Assembly (NCBI GenBank): GCA_964530615.1
Contig: CAZHAR010000001.1
Location: forward strand, 12,420-76,419
Direction of reading: 5' to 3'
Source of the DNA: an uncultured Planctomycetota bacterium
GTDB taxonomy: Bacteria; Planctomycetota; JBBTDB01
Length of the DNA stretch: 64,000 nucleotides
Each line of letters starts with the position of its first letter. Within the stretch, counting starts at the first letter, position 1. The notes under the pieces are model-generated. The model did no database searches. It was not told where the DNA came from and worked only from the letters and a program-made list of their open reading frames with translations. Below, piece after piece: positions 1-20,041 of the stretch. A program made the translations under genes and the position numbers.

Positions 1-1329
1 ATGGTTCTAAAAACCGGAGAATCCGTCGTAAGCGAAAATGCACTGCAAGATCCACTCTTTTCCCAATTTCCCTCCGTACGAGATTTTCAATTGGTTTCGA
101 TCCTCTGTGTTCCAATTCTCTCTCAAAAAAAGGCCGTAGGGGTTTTGTTTGTTGAAAATCGCAATATTTCCAGCCTTTTTACGGAAGCGAGTCTAAAAAC
201 TGTTGAAGCCTACGCGCATCAATTTGCGTTGGCCCTCCGTAAATCAGAACTGATTGAAGAAAATAAGGAAAAAGCAACTCTTCTGGAAGTACTAAATCAA
301 AAGCTAGAACAAAAGGTTCTTCAACAAGAAATCGATTTGACGGAAGCCGCTCGATTGATTGCGGAACAAAATGCGGAACTCTCAAAACGGTATTCGTTTC
401 ACCAAATGATTGGCCATTCTCCAGCCATACAATTCGCGTTTCAACGGATGATTCAATGCGCCAAAACAGACCTTCCTGTGCTCATCACTGGAGAAAGTGG
501 CACCGGAAAAGAATTGGCCGCGAAAGCTATCCATTATTCGAGCCCTCGAAATCAAAAAATTTTTCTGGCTGAAAATTGCGCGGGTTTATCTGAAAATGTC
601 CTTGAAAGCGAACTTTTTGGACATGAAAAAGGAGCCTTTACTGGAGCCATAACCACTAGAAAAGGACTTTTTGAACTGGCCCATGAAGGAACTCTCTTTC
701 TTGATGAAATTGGAGAAACATCACTCAATCTCCAAAAAAAATTACTTCGGGTGCTTCAGGAAGGAACTTTTCGTCGCGTGGGCGGAGAAAAAGTGCTTCA
801 AATCAATGTTCGGATCATTACCGCCACCAATAAGCGACTCGAAAATTTGGTCCAAGAAGGGCAGTTTCGGGAAGATCTCTTCTATCGACTTTCCGTGTTA
901 CGCGTGGATATGCCCCCGTTGCGCGAACGAGAAGAAGATATTGAACTGTTGGTCCCTCATTTTCTTCAAGAAATCGCCCGAAAAAATCAATGCGCTCCCA
1001 AAAAAATTTCGCGGACCGTGTTAAATTACCTTCGACAAAAAAACTGGCCCGGAAATATTCGCCAACTTTTTAACTATTTGCAAAGACTCGTCGCTTTTAC
1101 AGAAGGCGAGATGATCGATCAGATTGAAGCGATGGAAGAAATCCCCTCGTCTTCTTCTGGAACCTTACAAATCGAATTAAAAAAATTCCCGGAAATGCTC
1201 GAAAATCTTGAACGGATGGCGATTGATTTTTCTTTAAAAAAATGCAACGGGAATAAGACAAAAGCCGCGGAACTTCTTGGAATTTCCCGCTATACGTTAT
1301 TAAGAAAGATTCAAAAAATTGAAGACTGA
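1..1329 (+). CDS. Sigma-54-dependent transcriptional activator (NtrC family), 5'-partial: GAF-like N-terminus, AAA+ sigma-54 interaction domain, C-terminal Fis-type HTH
   Basis: Walker A GESGTGKE and sigma-54 contact motif GAFTGA seen directly. C-terminal HTH ...AAELLGISRYTLLRKI. The ORF runs to the window edge, so the true start is probably upstream. Confidence 0.85.
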   Translation: MVLKTGESVVSENALQDPLFSQFPSVRDFQLVSILCVPILSQKKAVGVLFVENRNISSLFTEASLKTVEAYAHQFALALRKSELIEENKEKATLLEVLNQKLEQKVLQQEIDLTEAARLIAEQNAELSKRYSFHQMIGHSPAIQFAFQRMIQCAKTDLPVLITGESGTGKELAAKAIHYSSPRNQKIFLAENCAGLSENVLESELFGHEKGAFTGAITTRKGLFELAHEGTLFLDEIGETSLNLQKKLLRVLQEGTFRRVGGEKVLQINVRIITATNKRLENLVQEGQFREDLFYRLSVLRVDMPPLREREEDIELLVPHFLQEIARKNQCAPKKISRTVLNYLRQKNWPGNIRQLFNYLQRLVAFTEGEMIDQIEAMEEIPSSSSGTLQIELKKFPEMLENLERMAIDFSLKKCNGNKTKAAELLGISRYTLLRKIQKIED

Positions 1330-2407
1330 TCCCCCACGTTCTATTCTTGTCGCTTGTCCTAAATGGGTCGGAGATGTGATCATGGCGACCCCGTTTCTCC
1401 GCGATCTTCAGACCTCTTTTCCCCACGCCAAAATCAGTCTTTTGATGAAGAAACATTTTCGCAAGATCCTTCAACATACTCCGGGGATTGAAGCGTTTTA
1501 TGAGTGGCCCTCTGGATATCGTGAAACAGGGGCTTTAATACGTCAACTGAGGAAAATCTCTTTTGATCGGGGCTACCTATTAACCAATTCCTTTTCGTCC
1601 GCACTATTTTTCTTTTTGCTAAAAATAAAGGAACGTATTGGTTATGCACGCGATGGGAGACGTTTTTTATTAACGCAACACTTGTCGCCTAAAAAAGAAC
1701 AGGGCCGTTTTCTTCCGGTGTCGATGGTCGACTATTATCAGGATCTTTTAAAATTAACGGCTGTCCCCCTTGGCCCTCGAGAGGTCCGAATTTATTACTC
1801 TGAAGCGGAACGAGAGGAAGCGACTCTTTTTTTAAAGAAGATCGGAATCGATCCTCAAAAACCTTTTGTTCTGTTGAATCCGGGCGCGGCGTTTGGATCC
1901 GCAAAATGTTGGCCCCCTTCGTATTTTGCGGAACTCGGAGATCGGCTTGTTCAAGAACTAGTCTGTCAAATTCTTATCCTGTGTGGCCCGGACCCGCATG
2001 AACGTCAATTGGCTCAAGACATTCAGAAAAAAATGCAACACCTCGCAGTGAGTACTCATGAAAATATCATTACCCTTTCGTTATTAAAACCCGTTGTTGC
2101 GTTTTCGTCTCTGTTAATTACTAATGATTCCGGCCCACGTCATTACGCCACGGCCCTTCGGGTGCCCTCAGTGACTATTTTTGGCTCCACCCACCAACAA
2201 TGGACCGACTATGATCAACCCGAAGCGACCCGATTACAAAAGGAAGTTCCCTGTGGCCCTTGTATGCAAAGGATCTGTCCAGAAGTCCTGAACGGCAGAC
2301 GGCACCTCTGTATGGAACTTGTCACACCCGAAGAAGTTTTTCAAGCTGCGAAACACCTCTTTTTCTCGAAAAAAAAACCCCATGAAATATCCTTGGATTC
2401 AAATTAA
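1319..2407 (+). CDS. ADP-heptose:LPS heptosyltransferase (glycosyltransferase family 9, WaaF/WaaC-like)
   Basis: N-terminal ILVACPKWVGDVIMATPF and LLNPGAAFGSAKCWP motifs are typical of GT9 heptosyltransferases. Apparent TTG start overlaps the stop of the upstream regulator. Confidence 0.75.
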   Translation: MKTDPPRSILVACPKWVGDVIMATPFLRDLQTSFPHAKISLLMKKHFRKILQHTPGIEAFYEWPSGYRETGALIRQLRKISFDRGYLLTNSFSSALFFFLLKIKERIGYARDGRRFLLTQHLSPKKEQGRFLPVSMVDYYQDLLKLTAVPLGPREVRIYYSEAEREEATLFLKKIGIDPQKPFVLLNPGAAFGSAKCWPPSYFAELGDRLVQELVCQILILCGPDPHERQLAQDIQKKMQHLAVSTHENIITLSLLKPVVAFSSLLITNDSGPRHYATALRVPSVTIFGSTHQQWTDYDQPEATRLQKEVPCGPCMQRICPEVLNGRRHLCMELVTPEEVFQAAKHLFFSKKKPHEISLDSN

Positions 2408-4004
2408 TCCACTCTTTAAAGAAATTTTAGAGCCACAACTGAATCACTACAAGGCCTTCTTATCCTTTGAACAAGGCCAACTTATCACCGTGTCAGGTAC
2501 CACCAAAACGATCCGATTCTCTTTACAAAATTATGAATTCTATCTCAAAACCTATACCTATCCCAAACTCATCTGGCGCTACAATTTTCTTCACTCACGG
2601 GTTCACTATGAATGGGAAAGCCTACAGTTTTTAAAAAAAATCGGACTCAATACCCCCACTGCAATTGCTTACGGAGAAGATCGAGGGCGACTCGCTCGAT
2701 TAAAAAGTTGTTTTATTATGACAGAGGGAGTTCCCGATTCGAAAAATATGGATCATTTTGTTCCTGAGTTTTTTCAACGCACACGAAACTCCGCTTGGCG
2801 ACAACAAAAAAATCAGATGATCACTCAACTCGCGGAACATACCGCAACAATGCATAATCACTATTTTATCGCGCATGACTTCTTTTGGCGGAACATTCTG
2901 ATTCAAGAAAATTCAACAGTACGATATTCTTTTATTGATTGCCCGAAGGGAGAGCAAGCGGAAACTTATCCAGAGGTATTTCGCAAATGCCGAATGAATT
3001 GGGGGCGAATTAAGGATTTGGCCTCTCTGGATAAAACCGCTCCAGATTTTCTGACCCGAGTTGATCGCTTACGTTTTTTGAAAGCCTATTTAGCGGTTTC
3101 TCCCGATTCTTTTCAATCACACAATTTTCTGAAGCAGTGGCTCCCTAAAATTCACGATGAAGCCGAAAAATTAAGGAAACGAAGCGATCAGAAAAAACAG
3201 GAACGCCTTCGAATCAACCGACAAATGCTCTATGCTCCTTCGATGCAGTTAAAACTTCAGGAAAACGGGATGATCGACTATCCATCGATTCTGCTTGCAG
3301 AAGGCGAAAAAGTCTCTTCGCATGGAACCCGGAAAGTCCTTCGGAAAACCCTTCAAGACGGCTCGCGCATTTATATTAAAGTTTCTAAATATCCTCACTT
3401 GAAAAATACGCTTCCGTTGAAATTGAAGGGAATTGCTTCGGTATCGAGGTTTGAAAAAGAAAATCTGGATCGTATACAACAGCAAGGATTTCCAGTTCCA
3501 GAATTTGTGGTGCTTGGAGAAAAAATTGAATACGGACTAGAACAGAGTTCTTTTTTAGTTCTCAAAGAATTACCCCAAGCCGTTTCGCTCGAAAAACTGA
3601 TTGCTGAAAAAACAACAGAAGCGCTCTCTCTAGAAATTCCAGAGTTGGCTCTGTTTCTAAGAAAATTCCACCACTGCGGATTTTATCATCAAGATCTCTA
3701 TACCAAACATTTGTTACGATCAGATGGAAAATGGTTTCTTATTGATTTACAACGTCTAAAACAAATTCGATCCTTTACTCTTGCTCTCGCCGCACAAGAC
3801 TTGGCGGCCCTTTATTGTACCTGTCAACAAAATAAAATTCCCAGAAGATTTTATGTCCTTTTTTTACGCTATTATTTCATGCAAGAAAATAAGCCCATTT
3901 TCGGCGAGGAAAGAACAAAAGCGCGAACGCTTTTAAAACAAATTCGAAAACGGGTCCGAAAATTAATACAGAGAAAAAAAATCCAACCGTATTTTCAAAA
4001 TTAG
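2382..4004 (+). CDS. Tandem lipopolysaccharide kinase (Kdo/WaaP/InaA family) domain protein
   Basis: Two kinase-like halves, each with a catalytic-loop-like motif (HDFFWRNILI and YHQDLYTKHLL). It follows the heptosyltransferase. The start is placed at the internal Met (MKYPW) because the 2319 start would overlap the upstream gene by 89 nt. Confidence 0.6.
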   Translation: MKYPWIQINPLFKEILEPQLNHYKAFLSFEQGQLITVSGTTKTIRFSLQNYEFYLKTYTYPKLIWRYNFLHSRVHYEWESLQFLKKIGLNTPTAIAYGEDRGRLARLKSCFIMTEGVPDSKNMDHFVPEFFQRTRNSAWRQQKNQMITQLAEHTATMHNHYFIAHDFFWRNILIQENSTVRYSFIDCPKGEQAETYPEVFRKCRMNWGRIKDLASLDKTAPDFLTRVDRLRFLKAYLAVSPDSFQSHNFLKQWLPKIHDEAEKLRKRSDQKKQERLRINRQMLYAPSMQLKLQENGMIDYPSILLAEGEKVSSHGTRKVLRKTLQDGSRIYIKVSKYPHLKNTLPLKLKGIASVSRFEKENLDRIQQQGFPVPEFVVLGEKIEYGLEQSSFLVLKELPQAVSLEKLIAEKTTEALSLEIPELALFLRKFHHCGFYHQDLYTKHLLRSDGKWFLIDLQRLKQIRSFTLALAAQDLAALYCTCQQNKIPRRFYVLFLRYYFMQENKPIFGEERTKARTLLKQIRKRVRKLIQRKKIQPYFQN

Positions 4005-5368: not shown

Positions 5369-6739
5369 TTAGAGTTTTTTCCAGAGTTCCTGAAAATCGG
5401 ACTGTTGCATTTGTTCGTGGAAGCGCTTTAATAAAAGGGGAACGTCTGCTTCCGATTTAAAATTCTCAATCGCTAGACCTTCTTCGTAAAAGACCCCAGA
5501 TTTGAGGAAAGCGGGACTTTGCGAGATAATACAAGTGACCAAATCGGGCCAAAATCCGAGAGTGCCTTTGTTCCCGGGATCTCGGCTGTTAAATGTAAAA
5601 TACATGCCTTCGTGTTGAATGGCTTTTTGAAACTCTTTGACCTTGATATAAGTAATATTCCGATTCAACAACGGCATCTTCTGAGGATTGAGGAAGAGAT
5701 GTTGATGTTCTGGGGTCTGAAGCTGAAGCTTTTCGACCATAACACATTCTCCGGTAGTTGGTTTTTGGAGAAAGGCTCCGCCTTTTTGACCTTTTAGATT
5801 GAGAATAGCTTCCAATACGAGAATTCTTTTGGGGTTTTCATCCAGAAGCGTTTGTACAGCGGCGAGCCTTTTTACATCAAAAGCACTCTGAAGAAGCTTA
5901 TTGTCTTCGACAGGGAAAGCGCATAACAACTCACTTTTATCGAAGTATTCTAGCGGAGAGATTCCCACGATCGGACGTTCAGTGCCAGCAGAATTCAGGG
6001 TAAAACCCTGATTTTTCCAACTTAATTGAAGTAGTGGATATCCGTGTCCGCCGGGTCTTTTTTGGCCATATTCTTTCCATCCATTTTGAAAAGTCCAGCC
6101 TTCAATTCCGTCCTGAATAATAAAGACGATTAAATCGGGGTTGAATCCAAAAAAATCATAGCGTCGAAAGAGTTCTAAGACTCCCACTTTGTTGTCCTGA
6201 TTAATATGGATAATAAAGGGGGTTCGTTTTAAGGTTTCTTCTCCACCCAGTCGTTCCAAATCGAGACGACGCTGGAGCATTTGTCTTACCGCCAGATTTA
6301 GCTCTTTAGGGAGATCGGGATCAAAAGAATTTCCTTGAAAAAAAACTTTGGAGGGTTTGGTGGAAATGGGTTTCCCATGCTTATCATAAATATACGATTC
6401 CGATTCTTGGAGAATTTGCTCGGCGCGACTAGCTTCTCCGGCCCAGAGGAGCCAAAAAATCATTTTTCCTTGAACGAGAAACGCTTTACTTTTTTCCAGA
6501 GTACGGGGATCCGATCCTTCGCACCACTGATTTAAATGAAGTGCCTCTTTTGAATCCGGAATTTGCAAAGATTCTGGAAAAGTGTTCCGAAGGTTGAGAA
6601 ATGTTTCTATTTCTGGAAGCGCAGGGGATCGGTTCCCAAAATAGATCTGAAAGGACTGTTTTAAGAGGGATTCAAAATGATCCAAGACTTCTTGTTTGGA
6701 ACGCATTTTCACAAAGGAAGAAGGAAGGAATTCAGACAT
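5369..6739 (-). CDS. Hypothetical protein, possibly a UDPGP-family (UTP-glucose-1-phosphate uridylyltransferase-like) nucleotidyltransferase
   Basis: PGGHG and TPFIIHINQDN weakly resemble the PPGHGD and PLVLMNSFNTD motifs of eukaryotic-type UGPase. The N-terminal Gly-loop is poorly conserved. Last gene of a five-gene minus-strand operon. Confidence 0.3.
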   Translation of the reverse strand: MSEFLPSSFVKMRSKQEVLDHFESLLKQSFQIYFGNRSPALPEIETFLNLRNTFPESLQIPDSKEALHLNQWCEGSDPRTLEKSKAFLVQGKMIFWLLWAGEASRAEQILQESESYIYDKHGKPISTKPSKVFFQGNSFDPDLPKELNLAVRQMLQRRLDLERLGGEETLKRTPFIIHINQDNKVGVLELFRRYDFFGFNPDLIVFIIQDGIEGWTFQNGWKEYGQKRPGGHGYPLLQLSWKNQGFTLNSAGTERPIVGISPLEYFDKSELLCAFPVEDNKLLQSAFDVKRLAAVQTLLDENPKRILVLEAILNLKGQKGGAFLQKPTTGECVMVEKLQLQTPEHQHLFLNPQKMPLLNRNITYIKVKEFQKAIQHEGMYFTFNSRDPGNKGTLGFWPDLVTCIISQSPAFLKSGVFYEEGLAIENFKSEADVPLLLKRFHEQMQQSDFQELWKKL

Positions 6740-6752
6740 AAGTTCTTAAAAC

Positions 6753-7121
6753 CTAATCGCCTTTGACAAGACGATAGCTATCGTCTTCAAAATGTTGAGT
6801 GGAAAATTCAAAAATTTCGGACTCTTTCGCTAATCCTTCGAATTGGTGAATTAAGCCGGGATAAATATGAAACGCGTCTCCGGTTTCCATAATAATTTCT
6901 TGAAACGGATCGGTTTCCTTTTTTTTAACACGAAGGAGAATGCGTCCGCTCTGAATATGAAAGGTTTCATCTTTTAGTTGATGGTAATGTTGAGAGCATT
7001 TTTTATGCTGAAAGAGCGTCAGAATTTTCCCACAATACTCGGGTTTGTTCACAATCCAGAGTTCGTGGCCCCACCCTTTAGGAACAAAGGTCATTTGCGA
7101 TTTTGTAATTTTGGACAACAT
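6753..7121 (-). CDS. Cupin-domain protein (cupin_2 conserved barrel)
   Basis: Cupin motif 1 G(X)5HXH(X)3,4E(X)6G and motif 2 are recognisable (HELWIV...HYH...; PGLIHQFEG). 13 nt after the upstream gene. Confidence 0.6.
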   Translation of the reverse strand: MLSKITKSQMTFVPKGWGHELWIVNKPEYCGKILTLFQHKKCSQHYHQLKDETFHIQSGRILLRVKKKETDPFQEIIMETGDAFHIYPGLIHQFEGLAKESEIFEFSTQHFEDDSYRLVKGD

Positions 7122-7124
7122 TCA

Positions 7125-8381
7125 CTACTCCAAGGTGACAAGGCCAGCAAGCGAAGAAAACGAAAGTGGGTCAATAGCTTCAGTACTTAAGCCGGTCGCC
7201 AAAATCACAGAGACGGAATAAGAGCTATCCCCCAAAGCCGCTGTAGAGAGTATTGTAAATTCGACGGTAGCGAGATTTACGACCTCGGGTAAGGCTCCGG
7301 TATTGGTAACGGTAGTAAATCGAAACGACGAAAAAGTTCCCAACGGAGGATTATCTCTCAGGGTATTAAAAGCAAATGGTGCATCAAAAGGGGCCTGAGA
7401 GCCGATTCTTAAGCCAGTGCCACCATCTCCTGAGGCTCCGGTAAGGGCTACAGTCAAGACTTGTGGGTCAAAAGTGATTTCGACCGTAATTTCCGCCAAT
7501 TCGTCCGCAACACTGGAAACATTTTCTAAACCTGCAAGGATGGCGTTAATCGGAACCAAAAAGACTGCACTTGGATTTTGAGCCGTTAACGGAGAGCCAA
7601 TTGCTAAACGAGGCAAAGACGGAATTTGAGGAGTAATCGCATCGGTCAGTGTTTGAACTCCAGAACTACCGCCAGTAACAGTGATATCTTGAGCACCGAA
7701 ATCCAAAAAATCGAGATTGTCTGGCAACCCACCAAAGCCATCGGGAGCAATTTGTAACGGGAACTCTAGCGAAGTCGCAGAGACAAAAGTGACCGTACCT
7801 GCGGCTAATCCATCTGAAGGGCTAAAAGCAACCGTCATTGGAGACACAAAGTTGGTTCCAGTGATTTTTGCCAAAAGGGTTGTTCCGGGAATAGCGGTAA
7901 TGGATTCTCCTGTCACGATGTTAAAAAGGCTAAGGGTCAGCGCGTCAGGATCAGGATCAGGGTCAGGATCCGTAAAGGAATCTGGCGTAGCAAATTCGAG
8001 AGGAGGGGTTATCAGTAAATTGTCTTCAAAGTCAAAAATTCCGGAATGGGTTAATCGATAAAAATGTCCTGTGTTCAGAACAGAAGCCATTTTGATTTCT
8101 GTATGAGTTCCATCAAATTCTTGTGCACTCGTGACCGAGGAAATTCCTTGAAGAGCACTAGAAGCATCCGGATCATCAAAAGCCCCTAAATCTTCAATCA
8201 CAAAAGAGTTGGAGGTAATCGTCGACGTATCTTCATTGAGATTGACAAAGGTTACGGTAAAAGAAGATCCATTTGCCGCAATGGAACTGACTTCCAAACT
8301 GATCGGTTTATCCTCATCGTCATTTTTATTACAGCTGGAAGTACCCAAGACAATGATTAAAAAAATCCAGAAATAACGCAT
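7125..8381 (-). CDS. Lipoprotein, Ser/Thr/Gly-rich, with a PDPDPDPD repeat
   Basis: Signal peptide plus lipobox (LGTSSC). Low-complexity T/S/G-rich body. (PD)5 is encoded by GATCAG-type hexamer repeats at about 7944-7971. Confidence 0.5.
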   Translation of the reverse strand: MRYFWIFLIIVLGTSSCNKNDDEDKPISLEVSSIAANGSSFTVTFVNLNEDTSTITSNSFVIEDLGAFDDPDASSALQGISSVTSAQEFDGTHTEIKMASVLNTGHFYRLTHSGIFDFEDNLLITPPLEFATPDSFTDPDPDPDPDALTLSLFNIVTGESITAIPGTTLLAKITGTNFVSPMTVAFSPSDGLAAGTVTFVSATSLEFPLQIAPDGFGGLPDNLDFLDFGAQDITVTGGSSGVQTLTDAITPQIPSLPRLAIGSPLTAQNPSAVFLVPINAILAGLENVSSVADELAEITVEITFDPQVLTVALTGASGDGGTGLRIGSQAPFDAPFAFNTLRDNPPLGTFSSFRFTTVTNTGALPEVVNLATVEFTILSTAALGDSSYSVSVILATGLSTEAIDPLSFSSLAGLVTLE

Positions 8382-8472
8382 CCGAGTTCTCTTTCTTTAA
8401 ACAGACTCTGAAGAAGTTCTTCTAATAATTTCGTTCATTTTAAGCAAAAATTTGAGAATTGGATAGCCATAG

Positions 8473-9471
8473 TTAACAGATTGGAATCGGGAGCGTACGT
8501 CCCGGGGTGAGTGTTACTTTTCGGAACCCTGAAAATACTTCTCCGTCCCAATTTGAGAGGAAGCCTTTTTCTTCAAGGCAGAGACATTCCAGTTTAAGTC
8601 CGGGTTGATCCCACACTTGGCGTCCAAATAGTTTTCGTCCAAAAACAAGATTCGGGATATTAGCCACCACTCCGAACATAGAGAGATAACCGAGTTGACA
8701 GTGCATTTTTCCATCTTTTCCGAACTGAAAAAGACGAATGATATTCGCAAAGTTTTGATTATAGGCTCCGACGTTAATAATACGAAATCGTTGAATCGGT
8801 AGTTCTTCTTCATCTAGGAAGACTTTTGCCGAAGTCAGCCGAGTCAGGTCCTTACTATAATTCTTCCAGATTGAAGGAACCGGAATCAATCGAATAATCG
8901 CTGTGTTAAAAAACATCGACAAGACGCCTTTTGCGATAACCGCAACCATAGTCGCGGGGCCACGATTAGGATGACGGTAATATTTTTCAAAGAAATTGGG
9001 TCCGATCCCTAACACCGCTCCCGCAAAGCAGATTTTTTTAAAATGTGTTCCGTCCACCATTTCTGCATCGACTTGTAGTGTCGGTAACGAATAAGTTGGT
9101 AAAGAACCGGAAGAATTCAAGAGACGCATCAGGATTTCTTCTCCGGTTCCTAAGACCTTTACTTTATTATTCGCGCAGTTCATGGTTCCAGAGTTTGTGG
9201 GAAGACAGAGCGGGAATTTTTCGAGGACCCCGTCTTCCAAACATTGTTGAAGTATATTGACGACCCAATGAAAAGTGCCATCGCCACCATCAGAAAGGAA
9301 ATGGGTCACTTTTTCCTGAATAAAATGCTCCAGCGCCGGACGAATTTCCTGGAGCGATTGGGTGGTCGTCAGAATCCCTTTATTTCCAAGGATTTCTCGA
9401 AGACGATCTTTCCGCTTGGGATCCCGTTTATTCTTTTTAGAATAGGGATTTAAAATCATTCCAATCCGCAT
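8473..9471 (-). CDS. DAGK_cat / NAD-kinase superfamily kinase (YegS/BmrU-like lipid kinase)
   Basis: N-terminal ILNPxS...GGDGT signature (FLSDGGDGTFHWVVN). Confidence 0.6.
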   Translation of the reverse strand: MRIGMILNPYSKKNKRDPKRKDRLREILGNKGILTTTQSLQEIRPALEHFIQEKVTHFLSDGGDGTFHWVVNILQQCLEDGVLEKFPLCLPTNSGTMNCANNKVKVLGTGEEILMRLLNSSGSLPTYSLPTLQVDAEMVDGTHFKKICFAGAVLGIGPNFFEKYYRHPNRGPATMVAVIAKGVLSMFFNTAIIRLIPVPSIWKNYSKDLTRLTSAKVFLDEEELPIQRFRIINVGAYNQNFANIIRLFQFGKDGKMHCQLGYLSMFGVVANIPNLVFGRKLFGRQVWDQPGLKLECLCLEEKGFLSNWDGEVFSGFRKVTLTPGRTLPIPIC

Positions 9472-9479
9472 TATTTCCT

Positions 9480-10724
9480 CTATTCGTATCGTATCAATTG
9501 TCGGACGGCCTCTGCGTCAGAAGCAATTTGTTCTGGATCTTCGTGCATTAAATAAACTTCATATGATTTGCCATAAATATCCTTAGTGACTCCGAGATGA
9601 GATCCAAGGGGGCGAGTGAAGCCTATCCTAAAAAAGGAGGGTAGTTGCTGAACTTCTTCTAATCCGTAAATGGCTTTAATACAAGGAATTTCATAAGTTT
9701 GAAGCCCATTTATAATTCGCGCTTGGAGACGATCATAGCGATCATAATGTAAATCCTCAAGACTGATAGGAAGATTCGCCATATAGTGACAAGCGGCCAA
9801 CTCAAAAAGGCTACGTTCGTGAAGCTTTGAGGTATTGAGGGGTTGATTTCCTCCGGCAAAACGCGCGCCGACTTCCACGAGACAGGGTCCGTATTCATCA
9901 AATTTGAGTTCCATATGAAACGGAGATTTACGGAGTTCAAGGGTTTCAATCACTTTTCCTGCATAGGTCGCTAGCGGTTGAAAAACAGCTTCGTTTGTGT
10001 TGACTTTGATGGTTTCATAATAGAGGTTTTTATATCCATGACTATCTCGTTTATCATAGCGCCAGACATCGGTAATCAGGACATCATAATCGGAATTGGT
10101 AATGCCATTGACGACATATTCGATGCCTCCGAGATACTCTTCTAGAAGCACCTCTCCTTGTTTTCCATGAAAAACTTGGACACAAGATTCAATCAGTTCT
10201 TCCATCGTATTCACAAAAAAAACGTTTTTAGAACCTCCGCCTTCGGTCGGCTTGACAACTATCGGCCATTTATTTAATTCTTGTTGAAAAGCAACTGCTT
10301 CTTCTTCGGTCGTGACAATCCGAGAGGCGTTAATTCGTAAATCCGTGGTATTTTTTCGGAGAAATTCTTTCAAGTAGTATTTGTTTCGAAAACGATGAAT
10401 CACTTCAAGCGGGTTCCAGTCGATTCCCAAATATTCACCTAGTTCTGCGCCAAACTCAATCGTAAATTCGCTCCAAGGAATAATTCCATCTAATGTTCCC
10501 CAATCCTGAAGAATTTGCTCTGCGAGCGATTGAACCTCTGGAAATTCGCTGGCTAAATATTCATCCACAAAATAATCGCCAAGTTCTTCCTCAAACAGAT
10601 GATGAAAGGTATGATATTGATCTTCTGCCGTAAATACCGCGATCCCGCGACAATCATGTTGCGCTAGAAATTCTACCATATAGGCCGGATAATCATGACC
10701 CGGATCTAAGATAACGTAGTACAT
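9480..10724 (-). CDS. ATP-grasp domain enzyme (carboxylate-amine ligase-like)
   Basis: ATP-grasp glycine-rich region VVKPTEGGGSKNVFFV. First gene of the minus-strand operon, 8 nt before the kinase gene. Confidence 0.6.
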   Translation of the reverse strand: MYYVILDPGHDYPAYMVEFLAQHDCRGIAVFTAEDQYHTFHHLFEEELGDYFVDEYLASEFPEVQSLAEQILQDWGTLDGIIPWSEFTIEFGAELGEYLGIDWNPLEVIHRFRNKYYLKEFLRKNTTDLRINASRIVTTEEEAVAFQQELNKWPIVVKPTEGGGSKNVFFVNTMEELIESCVQVFHGKQGEVLLEEYLGGIEYVVNGITNSDYDVLITDVWRYDKRDSHGYKNLYYETIKVNTNEAVFQPLATYAGKVIETLELRKSPFHMELKFDEYGPCLVEVGARFAGGNQPLNTSKLHERSLFELAACHYMANLPISLEDLHYDRYDRLQARIINGLQTYEIPCIKAIYGLEEVQQLPSFFRIGFTRPLGSHLGVTKDIYGKSYEVYLMHEDPEQIASDAEAVRQLIRYE

Positions 10725-10763
10725 AGGTAAAGAACCTTAATGAATAAGTAACTGTTCAGGTCT

Positions 10764-10850
10764 CCTAATGTCCCCCGCTGGCGGGGGATCAAGGGGGTGG
10801 AGTCTTTCAGAATTGCTCTTCCACCCCCAAACCCCCGCCAGCGGGGGACA
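10764..10850. repeat. REP-like GC-rich palindromic element: two inverted copies of ccacccccNNNcccccgccagcgggggac forming a compound hairpin
   Basis: cctaatgtcccccgctggcgggggatcaagggggtgg ... ccacccccaaacccccgccagcgggggac. Each arm holds a perfect 7-bp hairpin (cccccgc/gcggggg). A third copy lies at 57106-57143. It is GC-rich in an AT-rich intergenic region. Confidence 0.8.
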
Positions 10851-11013
10851 AAGACCACAAGATTTTATGGTTTGACCCGAGTTGAGATCTATAGGTTGTA
10901 CCTGAATAGTTACATGAATAATGAATAATAAATAATGGAGCAGAGAAATTTCGTTGTTCTCTGGTAATATTGTAACTATTTCTTGCCGTTGTGGAATATT
11001 TTAGGGAGGATTC

Positions 11014-11190
11014 GTGACAGAAAACAGATCGTCGGACTCTGGAACTCCGCTTGAATTTAAAGAAGTGGATACGCTAGATCCTTGGTTATTCAGGAGTTAT
11101 CTCTTTTTAGCTGTTTTTTTATGGATCGCTGTTTTTTATCTGACCGGAACCAAATGGTGGAACCATCCGTTAACATTTCTTGGCAAATAA
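11014..11190 (+). CDS. Possible small membrane protein (58 aa, GTG start)
   Basis: Manually found ORF that is not in the supplied track. It has a hydrophobic segment (LFLAVFLWIAVFYL) and ends 10 nt before the downstream membrane protein. Weak support. Confidence 0.25.
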   Translation: MTENRSSDSGTPLEFKEVDTLDPWLFRSYLFLAVFLWIAVFYLTGTKWWNHPLTFLGK

Positions 11191-11200
11191 TCGAAAATTT

Positions 11201-13600
11201 ATGAAAACGCTGACTCCGCTCTCTTATCGAATTGGATTGACGCTCTCGCTGATTTGCTTAAGTGTACTGGAATTAGAAATCGCTCTAACACGAGTTTTTG
11301 CGGCCCTGCTTAATTCTCAGATGGTGCTCATGGTTCTTTCTTTAACCATTTGTGGAATGGGATTAGGGGGAATGGTGGTCTCGGGTTGGATTTTTTTTGC
11401 GCCCGCGTCGATTCGTTCCTTACCTCAAAAGCCTGAATTTGTTGAGATTTTTAGTCTGCTTTTTGGCCTTTCTATTCCTTGTATGCTTTATGGTCTTTTA
11501 CAAACGCCTGAATCGGATGTTGCCACGACTTCGTTCTGGAACGCTTATTATTGGGCATTGATATTTTGGGCGACGATGCCCTTCTTTTTTGCGGGAATTG
11601 CAATTTCGAGTTTGTTTGAATGTTATTCTGAACAAGCGGAAACACTCTATTTTTATGATCTTTGTGGCGCTTCGTTAGGATGCCTTACTATAATTTTAAA
11701 GATGGAAGCGGGTGGAGGGCCAATCCGCGCCATTTCATCGATTCCTCTTGTTTTAGGGATCGCTCTGGCAATTTTTCGCTTTTTTCCAAAACCTAAACGA
11801 ACCTACAAAGATCTTGGATTTGGAATCTTATTATTCGGCTATTTGCTTTTGGGAATCTTCTTCGTCGTCAAGCAACCGTTTTCTTTGGATTATCGAAAAG
11901 TAGGAACACAAACGGCGGTAGGAAAAGCGCTCTTGGAAGAAAATGGCCAAATCGTGAGAACGAAGTGGGACTCTTATTCTCGAACGGATCTCGTCGAATA
12001 TCCGAAACATTCCCGTTTTGCCGGAGAAAAGCAACTCTTTATTAATACCGGAAAACGAGCACGTCTTCTTCAAAAGGGGATTGCGCGTCAAACCTATACA
12101 CGAGATATTGCCTTTCTTCCGTTTGCTTATTTCCAAAAACTTAAAGAAACGAGTGGCGCCGGTTTTTCTGTGTTAAATTTAGGATCAGGCGGAGGCTATG
12201 ATACGCGGCTCGCTTTATTTTGTAAGGCGACCGAAATTACCTTAGTCGAAATTAATCCACTCGTGGTTGATTTTGTGGAAGAAGAAAAAGAATTTGCAGG
12301 CGCACTGTTTCATTTTCCAGAGGTCCGAATTTATGTAGATGAGGCTCGCTCTTTTTTAAGAAAAACGTCAAAAACGTATGATGTGATTCATTCTTCTTTG
12401 ACATCTTCGCTGGCTTTTGAAGAATCCTCGCAACTTTCTTTTTATGAATCCTATTTTTACACTCAAGAGGCTATGGGTGAATATCTCTCTCGCTTAAATA
12501 AGAATGGCATTCTTTCGATTATTATTGAGCGAGATGATTTACGAGATAAGTTAGTAGCGACCTTTCTGGCACACTTCCAATCGATTTCTGGAGGACAAAA
12601 AAAAATTTCGGACGGAATGCAACAACTGGCGATTTTAACGATTCCAAAAGCAGGCGGAGCGGCCTACTCTAATTTAATTTTAGCAAAGAATACTCCGTTT
12701 ACGACAGAAGAGAGCCTTCTTTTAGAGGAACTGGCTTCTCCGCTTCAGGGGTATATTCCACAGAGTTCTCAGCGTCATTTTCAGCAATCTCCTTTTTCTG
12801 ACATCGCTCAAGGAAAGCTTGATGTTTTCGGCCCTCAAGGGTGGATTGATTCTTACACCAGCGGGAACGTACGCTTTAATATTGTCCCACCGACCGATGA
12901 CAAACCTTTCTTTTTCAATCATCAAGTGGGCTGGGATAAGCGATTACTTGATTTAGCGGGGAAAGTATTTTTTTATGTCATTTTGCTTCCTTTAATGCTC
13001 TTTTTTTACCCACGTAAAAGCCCCTCAAAGCAAGGGCAAGGGATGCCTCTCTGGAAATTAGGTGTTGCGTTTAGTCTGCTAGGAATGGGATTTATTTTAT
13101 TAGAGATTGCGCTTCTAAAGCAATTTATTCTTTACTTGAGCTATCCTACGTTGACGCTATCAACGACTTTATTTGGACTTCTCTTTTCTGCGGGAATGGG
13201 GGCGTATTGCTTTCGGCGGGTTCCTGATATAAAGAAATTCAAAGGGGCGTGTCTCTTGATTTTTACCAATACGCTTCTCTGGACGTTTTTATTACCTCCG
13301 TTGATGAACGCGACTTTAGGATTTCATACCGTTGTAAGGTGTGGGATTTGCTTAGGTGTTGTCGCTTCGATTGGAATTGTTTTAGGCGTTCCGTTTCCTT
13401 GTTTATTGCGCACGTTAAAGGTCAGGTATCCGGGATGGGTCCCCTTAGCTTTGGCGCTCAATGGAAGTATTTCCGTTCTTGGATCGATTTTTATGATTTT
13501 GATTGCGTTAGAACGAGGGATTCAGGAAACGTTTCTTTTTGGCGCATTCTTATATTTAATCTTAGCGTGCTTGATTCGGGATCGAGATTTTAGCGCATAA
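11201..13600 (+). CDS. Polytopic membrane protein with a spermidine-synthase-like (class I SAM-MTase fold) central domain
   Basis: Many TM helices at the N and C termini. The central VLNLGSGGGYDTRLAL...LVEINPLVVDF resembles the spermidine synthase dinucleotide-fold motif (COG4262-type membrane-bound spermidine synthase). Start set at the ATG at 11201; the track's TTG at 11180 is also possible. Confidence 0.6.
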   Translation: MKTLTPLSYRIGLTLSLICLSVLELEIALTRVFAALLNSQMVLMVLSLTICGMGLGGMVVSGWIFFAPASIRSLPQKPEFVEIFSLLFGLSIPCMLYGLLQTPESDVATTSFWNAYYWALIFWATMPFFFAGIAISSLFECYSEQAETLYFYDLCGASLGCLTIILKMEAGGGPIRAISSIPLVLGIALAIFRFFPKPKRTYKDLGFGILLFGYLLLGIFFVVKQPFSLDYRKVGTQTAVGKALLEENGQIVRTKWDSYSRTDLVEYPKHSRFAGEKQLFINTGKRARLLQKGIARQTYTRDIAFLPFAYFQKLKETSGAGFSVLNLGSGGGYDTRLALFCKATEITLVEINPLVVDFVEEEKEFAGALFHFPEVRIYVDEARSFLRKTSKTYDVIHSSLTSSLAFEESSQLSFYESYFYTQEAMGEYLSRLNKNGILSIIIERDDLRDKLVATFLAHFQSISGGQKKISDGMQQLAILTIPKAGGAAYSNLILAKNTPFTTEESLLLEELASPLQGYIPQSSQRHFQQSPFSDIAQGKLDVFGPQGWIDSYTSGNVRFNIVPPTDDKPFFFNHQVGWDKRLLDLAGKVFFYVILLPLMLFFYPRKSPSKQGQGMPLWKLGVAFSLLGMGFILLEIALLKQFILYLSYPTLTLSTTLFGLLFSAGMGAYCFRRVPDIKKFKGACLLIFTNTLLWTFLLPPLMNATLGFHTVVRCGICLGVVASIGIVLGVPFPCLLRTLKVRYPGWVPLALALNGSISVLGSIFMILIALERGIQETFLFGAFLYLILACLIRDRDFSA

Positions 13601-14096: not shown

Positions 14097-16337
14097 CTAT
14101 TCTGCGGAATTTTTATCCCAAACACAGCGAAAACCAAGGTCTACAGCAGAATAACAAGGATGAAAAGCGTCTCTAAAGTGACTGCTTCCAAACGAAATAT
14201 CTTCTTTAAAACTGGAGCCTCGAATACTTCGTTCTCTCTGCCATTTAGGATCATACCAGTTCGCCATCCATTCTCGAACATTTCCGGCGAGTTGACAAAT
14301 GCCAAATTCGCTGACATCTTTGGGAAAGGAGTTTACGGCCGCGAGATGAAAAGGAATTCCTTGCGCATTTTTGGTATTCGCAAAACCATAATGGCTTTGA
14401 TGTCCCCAAGGATAGAGATACGAAAATTTTCCTGCACTGGTAATTTCATATTCGACTTCGCTTGGAAGTCGTTTCCCTGCCCAGGTCGCATAGAGAACGC
14501 AATCAAACCAGTTTACAGAGGTGACGGGAAAGAGGGCTTCCTCTTTCTTATAAATAAAAATGCCAGCTTCGTTTTTTGTCCAATGAGCGGGTGGCGAATA
14601 CTTCGTTTCCTGAACAAATTGAAAATATTGTTGATTAGTGACTTCGTATTTATCCATATAAAAATCTAAAACAGTTTGTGAGGTATTTGGATTATCTGAA
14701 GTCAAGTTACTTCCTAAATAATACGTTCCCGCCGGAATCAGGCTCATCTCCTCTAAGTTCACTTTAGGAGGTTTTTGTTCATAGTGAGTTCGTATTTCAC
14801 GAAGCTTGATATTAAATTGTTCTGAAAATTTTGAAAATTTTTCATCAAAAATATCGTTTATTTCTGCAGGCGCAGGTTTCTGGACTGTCGTGGCCAAAAG
14901 AGCCCGAATTTTTTTTTGCAACGCCGGAGGGGAAAAAAAGAAAGAAACTCCTGCAATCAAAAACAAAAAGAAAATCGTAAAAACAAATCGGAAAAAAATT
15001 TTCTTTAGACGACGAGGAGCCTTTGCAGAAAGGCTCTGTGTTTTTTTTAGGATATTTAAATCGAGATGGTAGACGGAAGGAATTTTAATCGCTTTCTCAA
15101 GTGCTTGAGAAAATTCCTGGGCGGTTTGGTGTCGTTGTTGGGGATTTTTGGCCAGAGCTTTATCGACGATCGCTTCAAGGCTCGGCGAAAAATTTTTATT
15201 AGGGCATCGTATCCGTAACGGAACCGGTATTTCCGTAATATGCTTTCCTAAATAGCCATGAACCGTATCCGCATGAAAGGGACGTTCGCCAATGAGCATT
15301 TCATAGAGCATCACTCCCAAAGAATATAAATCGGAGCGGCCATCAATCGCTTCTCCCTTGGCTTGCTCTGGAGACATATATTGCGGAGTGCCAATGACGG
15401 AGGAGGTAATATCGACCTGATCATCGAGTAGTTTTGCAGTTCCAAAATCAAGGATTTTAATAAATAGCTCTTTTTGGGGATGACTGACAATCATGATATT
15501 TGCGGGTTTGATATCGCGATGAACCATTTGTTTCTCATGAGCGGCCCCCAATGCGTCAAGACATTGCCGCAAAATATAACCGGCTTCTTCGACTGAAACC
15601 GCGCCCCGCCAGTCCAGATATTCTTTTAAGGACGTTCCCTCGATGTATTCCATCGCGATATAAAATACAGACGATTTGACCTCCCCATAATCATAAATAT
15701 GAATAATATGGGGATGATTCAATCGAGAGGCGGCTTGTGCTTCCCGTAGAAAACGAGTTAATAAGGTTTTGCTTTCCATGAGTTGAGGTTGAAGGATTTT
15801 GACCGCAACAATTTTTTCCAACTTGATATGTTTCGCTTTATAAACAGCGCCCATTCCTCCTTTGCCCAAAAGTTGAAGTAATTGATAGCGATCATCAATA
15901 ATTAAATTTAAGAGGGGATCGGTTACTTCTTCATTGTGGAGAAAAGTGAGATTTGAGCCATCTGCGGGGCAAAAATTTTTGTCTTCTGAAAATTCCATTC
16001 GGCATTTAGGACAAAATTTAGGGTTATTTTTTTCCACCGTATAAAACTCCGCGAATCCATTCTTTATGCGTAATTGATAGAGAGAAATTTCGTCTTGAAC
16101 ATGGGTCCATTCTGGCTTTTCAAAAAGAAGGAATTCATTAATTTGGATTTTTTTTTGTTGTAACAAAAGTTGGAGAAAACTTCGATGTTGGAGTTTAGCG
16201 AGAGGAATTTGACGGAGGGCCTCATTCAAATCCGAGGGTTTTAATTTTTTATCGATTAAAAGTCTCAACCCGATTTTTCGAACTTCTTCATAGGAAGGAA
16301 ACAAGGTCTCTTGTTGATCTGTATTCTTCAAAAACAC
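14097..16337 (-). CDS. Ser/Thr protein kinase fused to a formylglycine-generating-enzyme (FGE-sulfatase/SUMF1) domain, with an N-terminal zinc ribbon
   Basis: CPKCR...CPADG zinc ribbon. Hanks motifs LGKGGMGAVYKA, HRDIKPANIM, DFGTAK, SPEQ. TM segment. C-terminal RLPSEVEYE and GNVREWMANWYD are typical of the FGE family. Confidence 0.85.
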   Translation of the reverse strand: MFLKNTDQQETLFPSYEEVRKIGLRLLIDKKLKPSDLNEALRQIPLAKLQHRSFLQLLLQQKKIQINEFLLFEKPEWTHVQDEISLYQLRIKNGFAEFYTVEKNNPKFCPKCRMEFSEDKNFCPADGSNLTFLHNEEVTDPLLNLIIDDRYQLLQLLGKGGMGAVYKAKHIKLEKIVAVKILQPQLMESKTLLTRFLREAQAASRLNHPHIIHIYDYGEVKSSVFYIAMEYIEGTSLKEYLDWRGAVSVEEAGYILRQCLDALGAAHEKQMVHRDIKPANIMIVSHPQKELFIKILDFGTAKLLDDQVDITSSVIGTPQYMSPEQAKGEAIDGRSDLYSLGVMLYEMLIGERPFHADTVHGYLGKHITEIPVPLRIRCPNKNFSPSLEAIVDKALAKNPQQRHQTAQEFSQALEKAIKIPSVYHLDLNILKKTQSLSAKAPRRLKKIFFRFVFTIFFLFLIAGVSFFFSPPALQKKIRALLATTVQKPAPAEINDIFDEKFSKFSEQFNIKLREIRTHYEQKPPKVNLEEMSLIPAGTYYLGSNLTSDNPNTSQTVLDFYMDKYEVTNQQYFQFVQETKYSPPAHWTKNEAGIFIYKKEEALFPVTSVNWFDCVLYATWAGKRLPSEVEYEITSAGKFSYLYPWGHQSHYGFANTKNAQGIPFHLAAVNSFPKDVSEFGICQLAGNVREWMANWYDPKWQRERSIRGSSFKEDISFGSSHFRDAFHPCYSAVDLGFRCVWDKNSAE

Positions 16338-19267: not shown

Positions 19268-20041
19268 TTAATTACAATCCACTAAAATTTCGTCTACCAT
19301 CCCATAACGATTTATAGGATTAAGGGCAATCATTTTATTCACAATTTGAAAAATTTTGGGGTTTCCCATACAAGCAACATGTTCTAGCGGAGGAATCGGT
19401 TGGTCGAGTTGAAATGGAATCGAACCTAAGGTCAGAATGCGGTAAAAGGAGCGTCCCAATCCAAAAATATCCCGTTTGAAGTGATCATATTCTGGTACTT
19501 CTAGGACTTCGGGCGCGACATAGCCAATCATTCCATGAAGAAATTCTTGATCCCATTCCAAGCGAGATTGAATTTCATAAATAGGTTGACAAAAACCAAA
19601 ATCAGTAATTCTGACTTCTCCATTTTCAAGGAGAATATTGAGTAGGTTGATATCGCGGTGGACATATCCTTGACGGTGGATATGACGTAAAGACTCTAAA
19701 CATTTTTTGAAGAGAGCGACGATTTGTTCTTCGAGGAAGCCTTTACTCTCCAAATAATCATCTAAAGATTTTCCGAATTTTTCCAGCACGAGAAAATAGT
19801 GTGTTTCGTTTCGTCCGCTATTAAAAATTTGGACGACATATTTAGATCGAAGCGCTAAAAGAGCCAACTTCTCAATGAGATAGAAGCGATAGATCTCTTC
19901 TTGTGTATAATCTTTTTTTGTTGCCGCAATACATTTTAGCGCATAGCCATCGGTTGTTTCGTAAACGGTACTAAAACCACCCTGACCGAGAAGCGATTTT
20001 ACTTGATATACTTTACCATTAACAACAAAAGACAGAGACAA
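19268..20041 (-). CDS. Compact eukaryotic-like Ser/Thr protein kinase (catalytic domain only)
   Basis: LGQGGFSTVY, HRDINLLNILL, DFGF, APE motifs all present. Confidence 0.75.
   Translation of the reverse strand: MSLSFVVNGKVYQVKSLLGQGGFSTVYETTDGYALKCIAATKKDYTQEEIYRFYLIEKLALLALRSKYVVQIFNSGRNETHYFLVLEKFGKSLDDYLESKGFLEEQIVALFKKCLESLRHIHRQGYVHRDINLLNILLENGEVRITDFGFCQPIYEIQSRLEWDQEFLHGMIGYVAPEVLEVPEYDHFKRDIFGLGRSFYRILTLGSIPFQLDQPIPPLEHVACMGNPKIFQIVNKMIALNPINRYGMVDEILVDCN

Follow-up and report, generated by a model that had tools for sequence, protein, structure and literature searches.

Do five minus-strand genes that lie almost end to end in the genome of an uncultured Planctomycetota bacterium encode a single pathway, or do they belong to separate systems that happen to be neighbours? 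The five ORFs abut at positions 5369-10724 of the window (the whole 64,000-nt stretch of DNA analysed) and are separated by gaps of 8, 91, 3 and 13 nt. An earlier note, which read them as one operon, gave coordinates and spacing that match the ORF listing of the window exactly (Table 1). The ORFs are real genes, since every one of them has orthologues conserved at 59-90% identity in other assemblies. The outcome is a gain in annotation and not a new kind of system; one of two cassettes holds a very divergent, unannotated enzyme that is predicted to form a sugar nucleotide.

Table 1. Features of the locus, with positions in the window
Feature	Position	Strand	Size	Basis or remark
Module B gene 3, divergent UDPGP-superfamily sugar-1-phosphate nucleotidylyltransferase (predicted)	5369-6739	-	456 aa	Profile, fold, fusions
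Module B gene 2, small cupin, aldose-ketose sugar isomerase-like	6753-7121	-	122 aa	Pfam, PDB matches
Module B gene 1, orphan S/T/G-rich lipoprotein with DPDPDPDPD linker	7125-8381	-	418 aa	Lipobox, synteny
Spacer between modules A and B	8382-8472	-	91 nt	Synteny breaks here in relatives
Module A gene 2, DAGK_cat-fold (DAG kinase / NAD kinase superfamily) kinase	8473-9471	-	332 aa	Pfam, motifs
Module A gene 1, ATP-grasp carboxylate-amine ligase, L-amino-acid-ligase-like	9480-10724	-	414 aa	Pfam, NCBIfam, PDB
Palindrome arms	10769-10787 / 10832-10850			Upstream of ATP-grasp gene
Polytopic membrane protein with spermidine-synthase-like methyltransferase-fold domain	11180-13600	+	806 aa	Divergent from ATP-grasp gene

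Gene order was compared in relatives at about 60-90% identity (samples SRR31850038, with L002 and L053, and SRR33012322, with L010). The neighbourhood is conserved in two parts: the ATP-grasp/kinase pair (module A) and the lipoprotein/cupin/UDPGP-like triplet (module B) are each kept, whereas in L002/L053 and in L010 the five-gene order breaks between them, at the 91-nt gap. The 19.5-kb contig L002 carries the lipoprotein (8326-9591), cupin (9597-9965) and UDPGP-like (10001-11392) genes, with an opposite-strand ABC transporter upstream, and lacks both the ATP-grasp and the kinase gene. The 40.7-kb contig L053 has a minus-strand gene for a membrane protein resembling spermidine synthase (SpeE-like), the ATP-grasp and kinase genes, and then a convergent GT2 gene. 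The same series in L010 ends at a convergent saccharopine-dehydrogenase-like gene (Sacchrp_dh). The ATP-grasp and kinase genes are also adjacent in L012. In L001 the cupin and UDPGP-like genes are followed by the AqpZ / deaminase / WaaP-like kinase / GT9 flank that is found in the window. Since they share a sample and have similar levels of identity, L002 and L053 appear to come from one organism, and likewise L001 and L010. The genes thus separate into unrelated contexts at the 91-nt gap, and the single five-gene pathway of the earlier note is not supported.

The explanation we favour, and hold as a whole with moderate confidence, is that two independent cassettes merely lie side by side in this genome. 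Module A is best read as a ligase/kinase pair unrelated to module B. Module B is best read as making an activated (NDP-) sugar, probably of the mannose/lyxose type, for the cell envelope.

The ligase of module A matches ATP-grasp_4 in Pfam (1.5e-14; 54.4 bits, gathering score 27). It resembles the L-amino-acid ligases BacD/YwfE, RizA, BL00235 and DdaF, with which it shares the ATP-grasp domain and a length of ~410-425 aa and which provide its best PDB and NCBIfam matches. In the PDB these ligases are matched at 1.8e-19 over residues 48-293 only, and Pfam adds a weak C-terminal match to LAL_C2 (0.007). The protein differs from them in falling far under the NCBIfam equivalog cut-offs (PRK07206, 5e-43, 147 bits against 302; DdaF, 7e-27, 94.2 against 840), with no equivalog-level match to a characterised enzyme such as DdaF. 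It also lies outside any antibiotic cluster and belongs to a well-conserved orthologous group of its own. Homologues at E<1e-10 number 187; the 120 matches listed are about 400-440 aa long (nearly all 413-421), comprise 119 non-identical proteins at 46-77% identity, and carry no more specific names than 'ATP-grasp domain-containing protein' or 'biotin carboxylase'. No kinase, cupin or UDPGP-like gene neighbours the orthologues at 50-64% identity, which speaks against a five-gene system, and their contexts are mixed (FemAB-like, tandem paralogues).

The kinase gene starts 8 nt after the ATP-grasp gene, an adjacency kept in L010, L012 and L053. Its product shares the DAGK_cat domain (PF00781; 1.2e-6; 28.6 bits, gathering score 23.6) and a GGDGT-type motif, here SDGGDGTF, with DgkB, YegS, sphingosine/ceramide kinases and NAD kinases. 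SDGGDGTF and TNSGT are invariant in 5 relatives. Unlike those kinases, it has only a recognisable N-terminal catalytic domain, with no accessory or C-terminal lipid-kinase domain detected by Pfam, and its clade is very rare (only 6 homologues among 5.8 billion proteins). The best NCBIfam score is 0.0097, with no equivalog. Another 37 relatives, mostly Myxococcota, stand at 28-36% identity; none of the other four genes lies within 10 kb of them, again at odds with one pathway.

The SpeE-like membrane protein scores just below the Pfam gathering score for Spermine_synth (9.4e-5, 22.5 bits against 22.9), and its NCBIfam matches to polyamine aminopropyltransferases are weak. In L010 (75% identity) and L053 (61%) its gene likewise diverges from the ATP-grasp gene, and the protein is a probable associate of module A. 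The ATP-grasp ligase would make an amide bond via an acyl-phosphate, and the kinase may add phosphate to a hydroxyl group on the ligase's metabolite or on a related one, possibly of lipid or polyamine type. The pair probably acts together with the membrane protein.

Module A might instead be a lipid-modifying pair, a possibility that we entertain only tentatively. A true lipid kinase (for diacylglycerol or a related lipid) would then work with an ATP-grasp enzyme that attaches amino acids or polyamines to lipids or to components of the envelope, and with the membrane-embedded SpeE-like protein as third partner. Distant kinase relatives do adjoin a PlsB-type glycerol-3-phosphate acyltransferase in Myxococcota (GPAT_C 2.7e-66) and a Tam41-type CDP-DAG synthase, a PlsC-type acyltransferase gene converges on one ATP-grasp orthologue, and three genomes keep the polytopic SpeE-like neighbour. 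However, the lipid context is confined to relatives at 28-36% identity, the adjacency is partly divergent or convergent, and in another relative an asparagine synthase follows instead. The heterogeneous ATP-grasp contexts and the lack of a detected lipid-kinase accessory domain count against a lipid role as well, and NAD kinases and soluble small-molecule kinases fall within DAGK_cat too. The reading of module A as a ligase/kinase pair unrelated to module B is preferred.

Module B begins with the lipoprotein, which has no match in Pfam, NCBIfam or the PDB even at E=10. Its N-terminus has a hydrophobic stretch followed by Cys17. The signal peptide and lipobox Cys, assigned by eye against a PROSITE-type lipobox pattern, read MRYFWIFLIIVLGTSSC in the window; the 59%-identical orthologue in L002 reads MRFLYFLLLFTLMLIGC, contains LIGC as a classical lipobox and keeps Cys17 at the aligned position. 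In both genomes the gene is directly upstream of the cupin gene. With Cys17 conserved, and ATP-grasp_4 and DAGK_cat above their Pfam gathering scores, the first descriptions of ligase, kinase and lipoprotein all hold. The lipoprotein would be an exported S/T-rich surface protein, a likely target of glycosylation or simply a co-expressed envelope component.

The cupin had been put forward as a sugar isomerase, and its matches bear this out. In Pfam it reaches Cupin_2 (4.9e-7; 29.8 bits, gathering score 27.2) and Lyx_isomer (2e-4; 21.1 bits, gathering score 20.8), with no match to MannoseP_isomer. In the PDB it matches the D-lyxose/D-mannose isomerases 7nzo (1.2e-4) and 2y0o (1.8e-4) and the mannose-6-P isomerase 7zvm (1.2e-3), and the metal-ligand residues H-x-H...E...H align with all three (QHYHQLKDETF pairs with PEHRH...KQETF, and IHQF with LHWF). 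These matches are weak (1e-4) and do not separate free-sugar from sugar-phosphate isomerases. The orthologues in L001 (87% identical) and L002 (78%) each adjoin the UDPGP-like gene; the pairing is seen in only three closely related genomes, and the 28% relative is without a cupin. The cupin would be a metal-dependent aldose-ketose isomerase of the D-lyxose/D-mannose or mannose-6-P type that sets the sugar configuration.

The UDPGP-like protein has no match in Pfam, NCBIfam or a single-sequence PDB search. It does not reach the gathering score of the Pfam UDPGP model (PF01704), which only 1 of 33 family members matches (E=0.0036). A profile of the 33 sequences, by contrast, recovered only UAP, UGP or USP enzymes from the PDB (21 of 21 matches, best 2e-6). 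In this alignment the nucleotide-binding (NB) loop AGeATRLG pairs with GGQGTRLG and ipllNkn with FNTNN, and the motifs NnFfGF..V.F..Q, GHG and KGG also pair with those of UDPGP enzymes. The AlphaFold (AF2) model of the protein has a pLDDT of 90.1, falling to 71-82 across residues 101-140, and a pTM of 0.91. The best 50 Foldseek matches in the PDB were all UAP, UGP or USP (E 5e-17 to 3e-14; TM 0.53-0.60; 406-506 aligned columns, mostly about 430-500; sequence identity 11-16%), and the three-domain UDPGP fold is present over the full length. What had been a tentative UDPGP-like call is thus confirmed by profile, fold and domain fusions, with UDP-GlcNAc, UDP-Glc and UDP-sugar pyrophosphorylases matched from end to end.

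The fusions are found in multi-domain relatives (~900-2000 aa), giant proteins of Ca. Omnitrophota. Among 12 scanned, 5 carry a phosphoglucomutase (PGM/PMM), 1 a hexokinase and 1 an NDP kinase (NDK), which argues for sugar phosphates as the family substrates. The predicted family activity is NTP + sugar-1-phosphate -> NDP-sugar + PPi, and in module B the enzyme would join a sugar-1-phosphate and an NTP in this way. Module B itself encodes no mutase, sugar kinase or glycosyltransferase; the kinase or mutase supplying the sugar-1-phosphate, and the glycosyltransferase, would be encoded elsewhere. Bacterial hosts of the family are Planctomycetota, Omnitrophota and Auribacterota, and a distant sub-clade has RmlD, RmlA-like NTP_transferase, GT4, Phosphodiest-family and GDE_C neighbours.

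Two known systems offer comparisons. Eukaryote-type UAP1/AGX1, UGP and USP (PF01704) share the N-terminal helical domain, nucleotidyltransferase core and C-terminal domain and a length of ~450-500 aa, and the family profile aligns with them at the G-rich NB loop with Arg, FfGF..V.F.Q, GHG, KGG and LN.N. The window protein differs in being bacterial, only 11-16% identical and below Pfam detection, and in having AGEA(S/T)R in place of GGxGTR. Bifunctional PMI-GMP enzymes of the ManC/AlgA/XanB type combine an NTP_transferase with a type II phosphomannose-isomerase cupin. Module B is similar in logic, a cupin isomerase coupled to a nucleotidylyltransferase, but the genes are separate and 13 nt apart, the nucleotidyltransferase has the UDPGP fold and not the RmlA/GalU-type one (PF00483), and the cupin is free-standing and closest to D-lyxose/D-mannose isomerases.

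The NB loop raises the question of whether the enzyme of the window clade is catalytic at all. Signature motifs of the UDPGP superfamily are L-x2-G-x-G-T-R-x-G ... K in the NB loop, GHG/GNG, K-G-G and N-x-N. In the family consensus, AGEATRLGLGTKY, RPxGHG, QKGG and LNxN line up with the motifs of UAP and UGP, and G101, R152, H232, G233, D279, G320 and K428 are invariant throughout the family. The NB loop of the window clade reads AGEASRAEQ...SESY, and the window protein keeps G101, R105, H232, G233, G320 and K428. The loop is degenerate relative to both the family and the canonical GGxGTRxG...PK (Thr to Ser, Leu-Gly to Ala-Glu, and loss of the Lys of GTKY). This, the failure of the Pfam model on 32 of 33 family members and the lowered pLDDT over residues 101-140 would suit a non-catalytic or re-purposed protein, for example a regulator that binds sugar nucleotides or a nucleotidyltransferase whose substrate is a phosphate other than a sugar phosphate, and module B would then make no NDP-sugar. 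We consider this unlikely. The loop Gly and Arg and the family-invariant H232, G233, D279, G320 and K428 are retained, several other family members also lack the loop Lys, and the fusions argue for sugar-phosphate substrates. Three orthologues are 64-86% identical with the entire core invariant, which points to purifying selection. The preferred reading keeps a predicted NDP-sugar-forming enzyme in module B, which, given its atypical loop, may differ from canonical UDPGPs in activity or specificity.

Also unlikely is one operon building and attaching a single unusual decoration, in which the cupin and UDPGP-like enzymes would supply an NDP-sugar, the ATP-grasp ligase would add an amino-acyl group and the kinase a phosphate, and the product would be set on the lipoprotein or a lipid head-group: the shared strand, short gaps and chemically compatible enzyme classes suit it, but in both of the nearest relatives available for comparison the halves are not linked, their wider relatives lack the other partners, and a glycosyltransferase is absent. 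None of the four intergenic gaps holds a terminator-like site, so a single transcript over the five genes is possible in this genome. The 91-nt spacer contains no detected consensus promoter or terminator; the five genes may therefore still be co-transcribed and may have gained a joint role here. Compared with the sequence that precedes the lipoprotein gene in L002, the spacer shows no clear conservation. The palindrome said to precede the operon is missing from the syntenic loci and is hence not part of the system, but it is itself real, with 19-nt arms that are 100% complementary.

The earlier note described five minus-strand ORFs with intergenic spacing of 8, 91, 3 and 13 nt, and the ORF listing agrees in every coordinate. 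All five are genuine genes because each has conserved orthologues elsewhere. By a consensus scan, none of the four gaps contains a terminator-like hairpin, and alignment of the window with L002, a homologous locus from sample SRR31850038, revealed no clear conservation of a promoter or leader 5' of the lipoprotein gene.

Positions of the genes, cassettes and repeats discussed in the text (window coordinates)
Feature	Position	Strand	Description
GT9 heptosyltransferase	1319-2407	+	
Kdo/WaaP-type protein	2319-4004	+	561 aa
Module B	5369-8381	-	gene 5, cupin, lipoprotein
Gene 5 (UDPGP-like)	5369-6739	-	456 aa
Cupin	6753-7121	-	122 aa
Lipoprotein	7125-8381	-	418 aa
Module A	8473-10724	-	kinase, ATP-grasp
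Kinase	8473-9471	-	332 aa
ATP-grasp	9480-10724	-	414 aa
Compound palindromic element	10743-10915		core 10769-10850
Palindrome arms	10769-10787, 10832-10850		19 nt each
AT-rich inverted pair	about 10743-10758, 10900-10915		seen by eye
SpeE-like membrane protein	11180-13600	+	806 aa
Kinase-FGE-sulfatase fusion	14097-16337	-	
Pkinase gene	19268-20041		
Third copy of 16-mer core	57120-57135		

The proposal that the five genes serve one pathway does not survive gene-neighbourhood comparison, as related genomes split the block at the 91-nt gap. In L002, which carries a 64% gene-5 relative, cupin (78% identity) and lipoprotein (about 60%) genes precede gene 5, with an opposite-strand ABC-transporter cluster before the lipoprotein and a convergent TPR protein downstream. 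Neither an ATP-grasp nor a kinase gene is present at this locus. A 77% ATP-grasp relative lies on a 40.7-kb contig from the same sample (L053), where the order is a SpeE-like membrane protein on the opposite strand, ATP-grasp, kinase and then a convergent GT2 gene. In a closer relative (81-90% identity; contig L010), a convergent saccharopine-dehydrogenase-like gene comes after ATP-grasp and kinase, along with an unrelated ORF. Cupin and gene 5 are on a separate contig (L001), which runs on into the AqpZ, deaminase, WaaP-like kinase and heptosyltransferase flank as in the window. None of the foreign genes that flank ATP-grasp and kinase in the relatives was found in the corresponding part of the window. 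Scattering of the genes into other contexts had been named beforehand as evidence against a single operon, and it occurs at the 91-nt gap. In our reading the locus consists of two cassettes, module A (ATP-grasp and kinase) and module B (lipoprotein, cupin and gene 5). The analysis shows the folds and the synteny, while we infer the substrates, the nucleotide specificity, the part played by the lipoprotein and the transcript structure in the window's organism. A literature search found no paper on these gene combinations.

Single-sequence searches of Pfam, NCBIfam and PDB with gene 5 returned nothing, and only three close relatives were present among 5.8 billion clustered proteins. The first AlphaFold model, built from a 3-sequence alignment, had a pLDDT of 39 and was not usable. 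A metagenome scan seeded by the close alignment gave no additional relatives. With the three-sequence profile as query, an HMMER scan that uses no word index, run over 1.84 billion representatives, recovered at least 150 representative clusters at E<=1e-3, and 62 among the matches listed fall below 1e-10. A 33-sequence alignment of the family has the consensus motifs AGxATRLGxGxKY, RPxGHG, QKGG and IPxLNxN, with G101, R152, H232, G233, D279, G320 and K428 invariant. When the 33-sequence profile was compared with PDB, all 21 matches at E<=1 were UDP-GlcNAc, UDP-Glc or UDP-sugar pyrophosphorylases, and in the alignments the family motifs pair with the canonical GGQGTRLG, NYFGL..V.FF.Q, GHG, KGG and FNTNN. 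A usable model (pLDDT 90.1, pTM 0.91) came after the HMMER scan had added distant relatives to the alignment. Foldseek, run on this model against PDB, placed only UDPGP-family enzymes among its best 50 matches (E 5e-17 to 3e-14, TM 0.53-0.60, identity 11-16%, mostly about 430-500 aligned columns). A caveat concerns the window clade: its nucleotide-binding loop has the sequence AGEASRAEQ...SESY, in which the lysine is missing, and several other members are also without it.

Domain fusions offer independent, indirect evidence on the function of the family. Phosphoglucomutase/phosphomannomutase (PGM/PMM) domains occur in 5 of the 12 multi-domain relatives scanned, and hexokinase, nucleoside-diphosphate kinase (NDK) and DprA/SLOG domains in one of the 12 each. 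PGM/PMM, hexokinase and NDK are enzymes that feed a sugar-1-phosphate nucleotidylyltransferase. Taken together, these results bear out the label 'UDPGP-like' as far as fold and superfamily are concerned, although gene 5 is not a UDPGP member by Pfam's criterion. Single-domain family members (about 430-540 aa) match no Pfam family, and those members that have names come from Ca. Omnitrophota and Ca. Auribacterota, where they are annotated as hypothetical proteins. In Ca. Omnitrophota MAGs, proteins of 1000-6400 aa (P0011-P0032 and similar) contain one or two UDPGP-like domains, tandem copies included, joined to PGM/PMM, hexokinase, NDK or DprA/SLOG domains. Their domain content suggests a complete sugar-activation route on a single polypeptide. 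A distant sub-clade is common in metagenomes (177 loci). Genes that recur beside it encode RmlD, an RmlA-type nucleotidyltransferase, a GT4 glycosyltransferase, a protein of the Phosphodiest family (type I phosphodiesterase / nucleotide pyrophosphatase) and a GDE_C protein for glycogen debranching, and there are recurring housekeeping genes as well.

The cupin passes Cupin_2. By sequence, the structures closest to it are those of D-lyxose/D-mannose isomerases and one mannose-6-phosphate isomerase, with which its His-x-His...Glu...His ligand positions align. The lipoprotein has a conserved lipobox cysteine and a DPDPDPDPD linker, and no Pfam, NCBIfam or PDB entry shows detectable homology to it; at E=10 there were zero Pfam matches, the single PDB match was at chance level (E=0.76), and a two-sequence profile search found nothing. 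Ig/IPT/cohesin-like domains are a by-eye impression that we do not claim. A 1030-aa membrane protein 5' of a 28% gene-5 relative was considered as lipoprotein kin and rejected, being unrelated on comparison.

As we interpret it, module B encodes a lipoprotein that is exported, an aldose-ketose isomerase of the cupin type and a nucleotidylyltransferase with the UDPGP fold. Their simplest mechanism would be the local production of an activated mannose- or lyxose-type sugar for the envelope, with the S/T-rich lipoprotein as a possible acceptor. The coupling of isomerase and nucleotidyltransferase resembles that of the ManC-type PMI-GMP enzymes, but the nucleotidyltransferase fold differs. A bolder reading, which we consider improbable, makes gene 5 an unrecognised bacterial branch of UDPGP with an altered loop and non-canonical specificity, which together with the cupin provides a rare NDP-sugar that glycosylates the lipoprotein. 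The branch may be spread across PVC-related candidate phyla, and the giant Omnitrophota proteins may hold it in hexokinase-PGM-pyrophosphorylase 'assembly lines'. The altered nucleotide-binding loop could confer a non-canonical nucleotide or sugar specificity, and in the Planctomycetota clade gene 5 and its dedicated cupin isomerase would make a rare NDP-sugar for the co-encoded S/T-rich lipoprotein.

In module A, the ATP-grasp product matches Pfam ATP-grasp_4 (1.5e-14). Its closest characterised relatives are L-amino-acid ligases, with PDB matches to 1.8e-19, and it matches DdaF at 7e-27, yet far under the equivalog cut-off. The orthologous group is large and tightly conserved (187 proteins with E<1e-10). 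Among the 120 matches listed, the homologues are about 400-440 aa long, 46-77% identical (the identical entry excepted) and bear generic names only. The DAGK_cat domain of the kinase exceeds the Pfam gathering score, and its motifs SDGGDGTF and TNSGT do not vary among relatives. The kinase clade is rare, with six proteins in 5.8 billion. The sole constant neighbour of the pair is the divergent SpeE-like protein, found in three genomes (identities 75% and 61%); it is a polytopic membrane protein whose central domain is spermidine-synthase-like (class I methyltransferase fold) and scores slightly below the Pfam threshold. Module A, probably with this neighbour, would supply an amide-forming ligase and a DAGK-fold kinase, and weak contextual signs are all that point to a lipid- or polyamine-related substrate.

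A widespread pairing of ATP-grasp and kinase was ruled out, as the ATP-grasp gene is missing from 37 Myxococcota-type kinase loci and ATP-grasp orthologues at <=64% identity are not accompanied by the kinase. Those at 50-64% identity are solitary, beside a FemAB-like gene or in tandem paralogues. Within 10 kb of the 37 kinase relatives (28-36% identity, mostly freshwater Myxococcota) the other four genes are absent; several distant relatives adjoin a PlsB-type acyltransferase. In these MAGs (L016-L052, e.g. L028 6044-11000) the DAGK-like gene lies 3' of the gene for a conserved protein (about 325 aa) that matches no Pfam family, and is divergent from a PlsB-type glycerol-3-phosphate acyltransferase gene. 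ORF-based neighbourhood clustering gave shadow ORFs at these high-GC loci, and the Pfam-verified PlsB call alone was retained. Several of the MAG records bear implausible names (Enterobacteriaceae, Klebsiella). In more distant bacteria, tandem paralogue pairs of the 414-aa ATP-grasp family occur (L136 7001-9544 and L137 64-2582), the former with a third, convergent ATP-grasp gene. Such pairs hint at a two-step ligation pathway unconnected with the kinase.

The palindrome that the earlier note placed 5' of the ATP-grasp gene is real. Its inverted, G/C-rich arms (TGTCCCCCGCTGGCGGGGG / CCCCCGCCAGCGGGGGACA) are perfectly complementary and 44 nt apart, a further AT-rich inverted pair, seen by eye, flanks it, and its 16-mer core has a third copy in the window, where none is expected by chance. 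None of the 137 related loci has the element, and this includes the corresponding intergenic regions in the relatives. We therefore do not count it as part of the system; it looks like a genome-specific REP/MITE-like element.

The locus holds no new kind of system. Its enzymes are divergent, uncharacterised representatives of four well-known superfamilies, and its lipoprotein is an orphan. Its practical value is in annotation: at least 150 clusters, among the matches listed all 'hypothetical protein', can be placed in the UDPGP nucleotidyltransferase fold, including domains within the giant Omnitrophota proteins, in a family invisible to Pfam and NCBIfam. This Pfam-invisible family in PVC-related candidate phyla is the most interesting by-product. 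The view of envelope biosynthesis is unaltered, except if the specificity of the gene-5 enzyme proves unusual. The locus also counsels caution, as tight same-strand spacing pointed to a five-step pathway and synteny reveals two cassettes. Module B and module A (with the SpeE-like gene) are separate targets for knock-out or profiling.

An LPS-core-type locus lies just downstream of module B, past the AqpZ and deaminase genes, in this Planctomycetota-labelled genome. The 561-aa protein carries a pair of LPS kinase domains of the Kdo/WaaP type and adjoins the GT9 heptosyltransferase, an arrangement that is syntenic in L001. Beyond the SpeE-like gene, one gene joins a Ser/Thr protein kinase to a formylglycine-generating-enzyme-like (FGE-sulfatase) domain, and several further Pkinase genes lie nearby.
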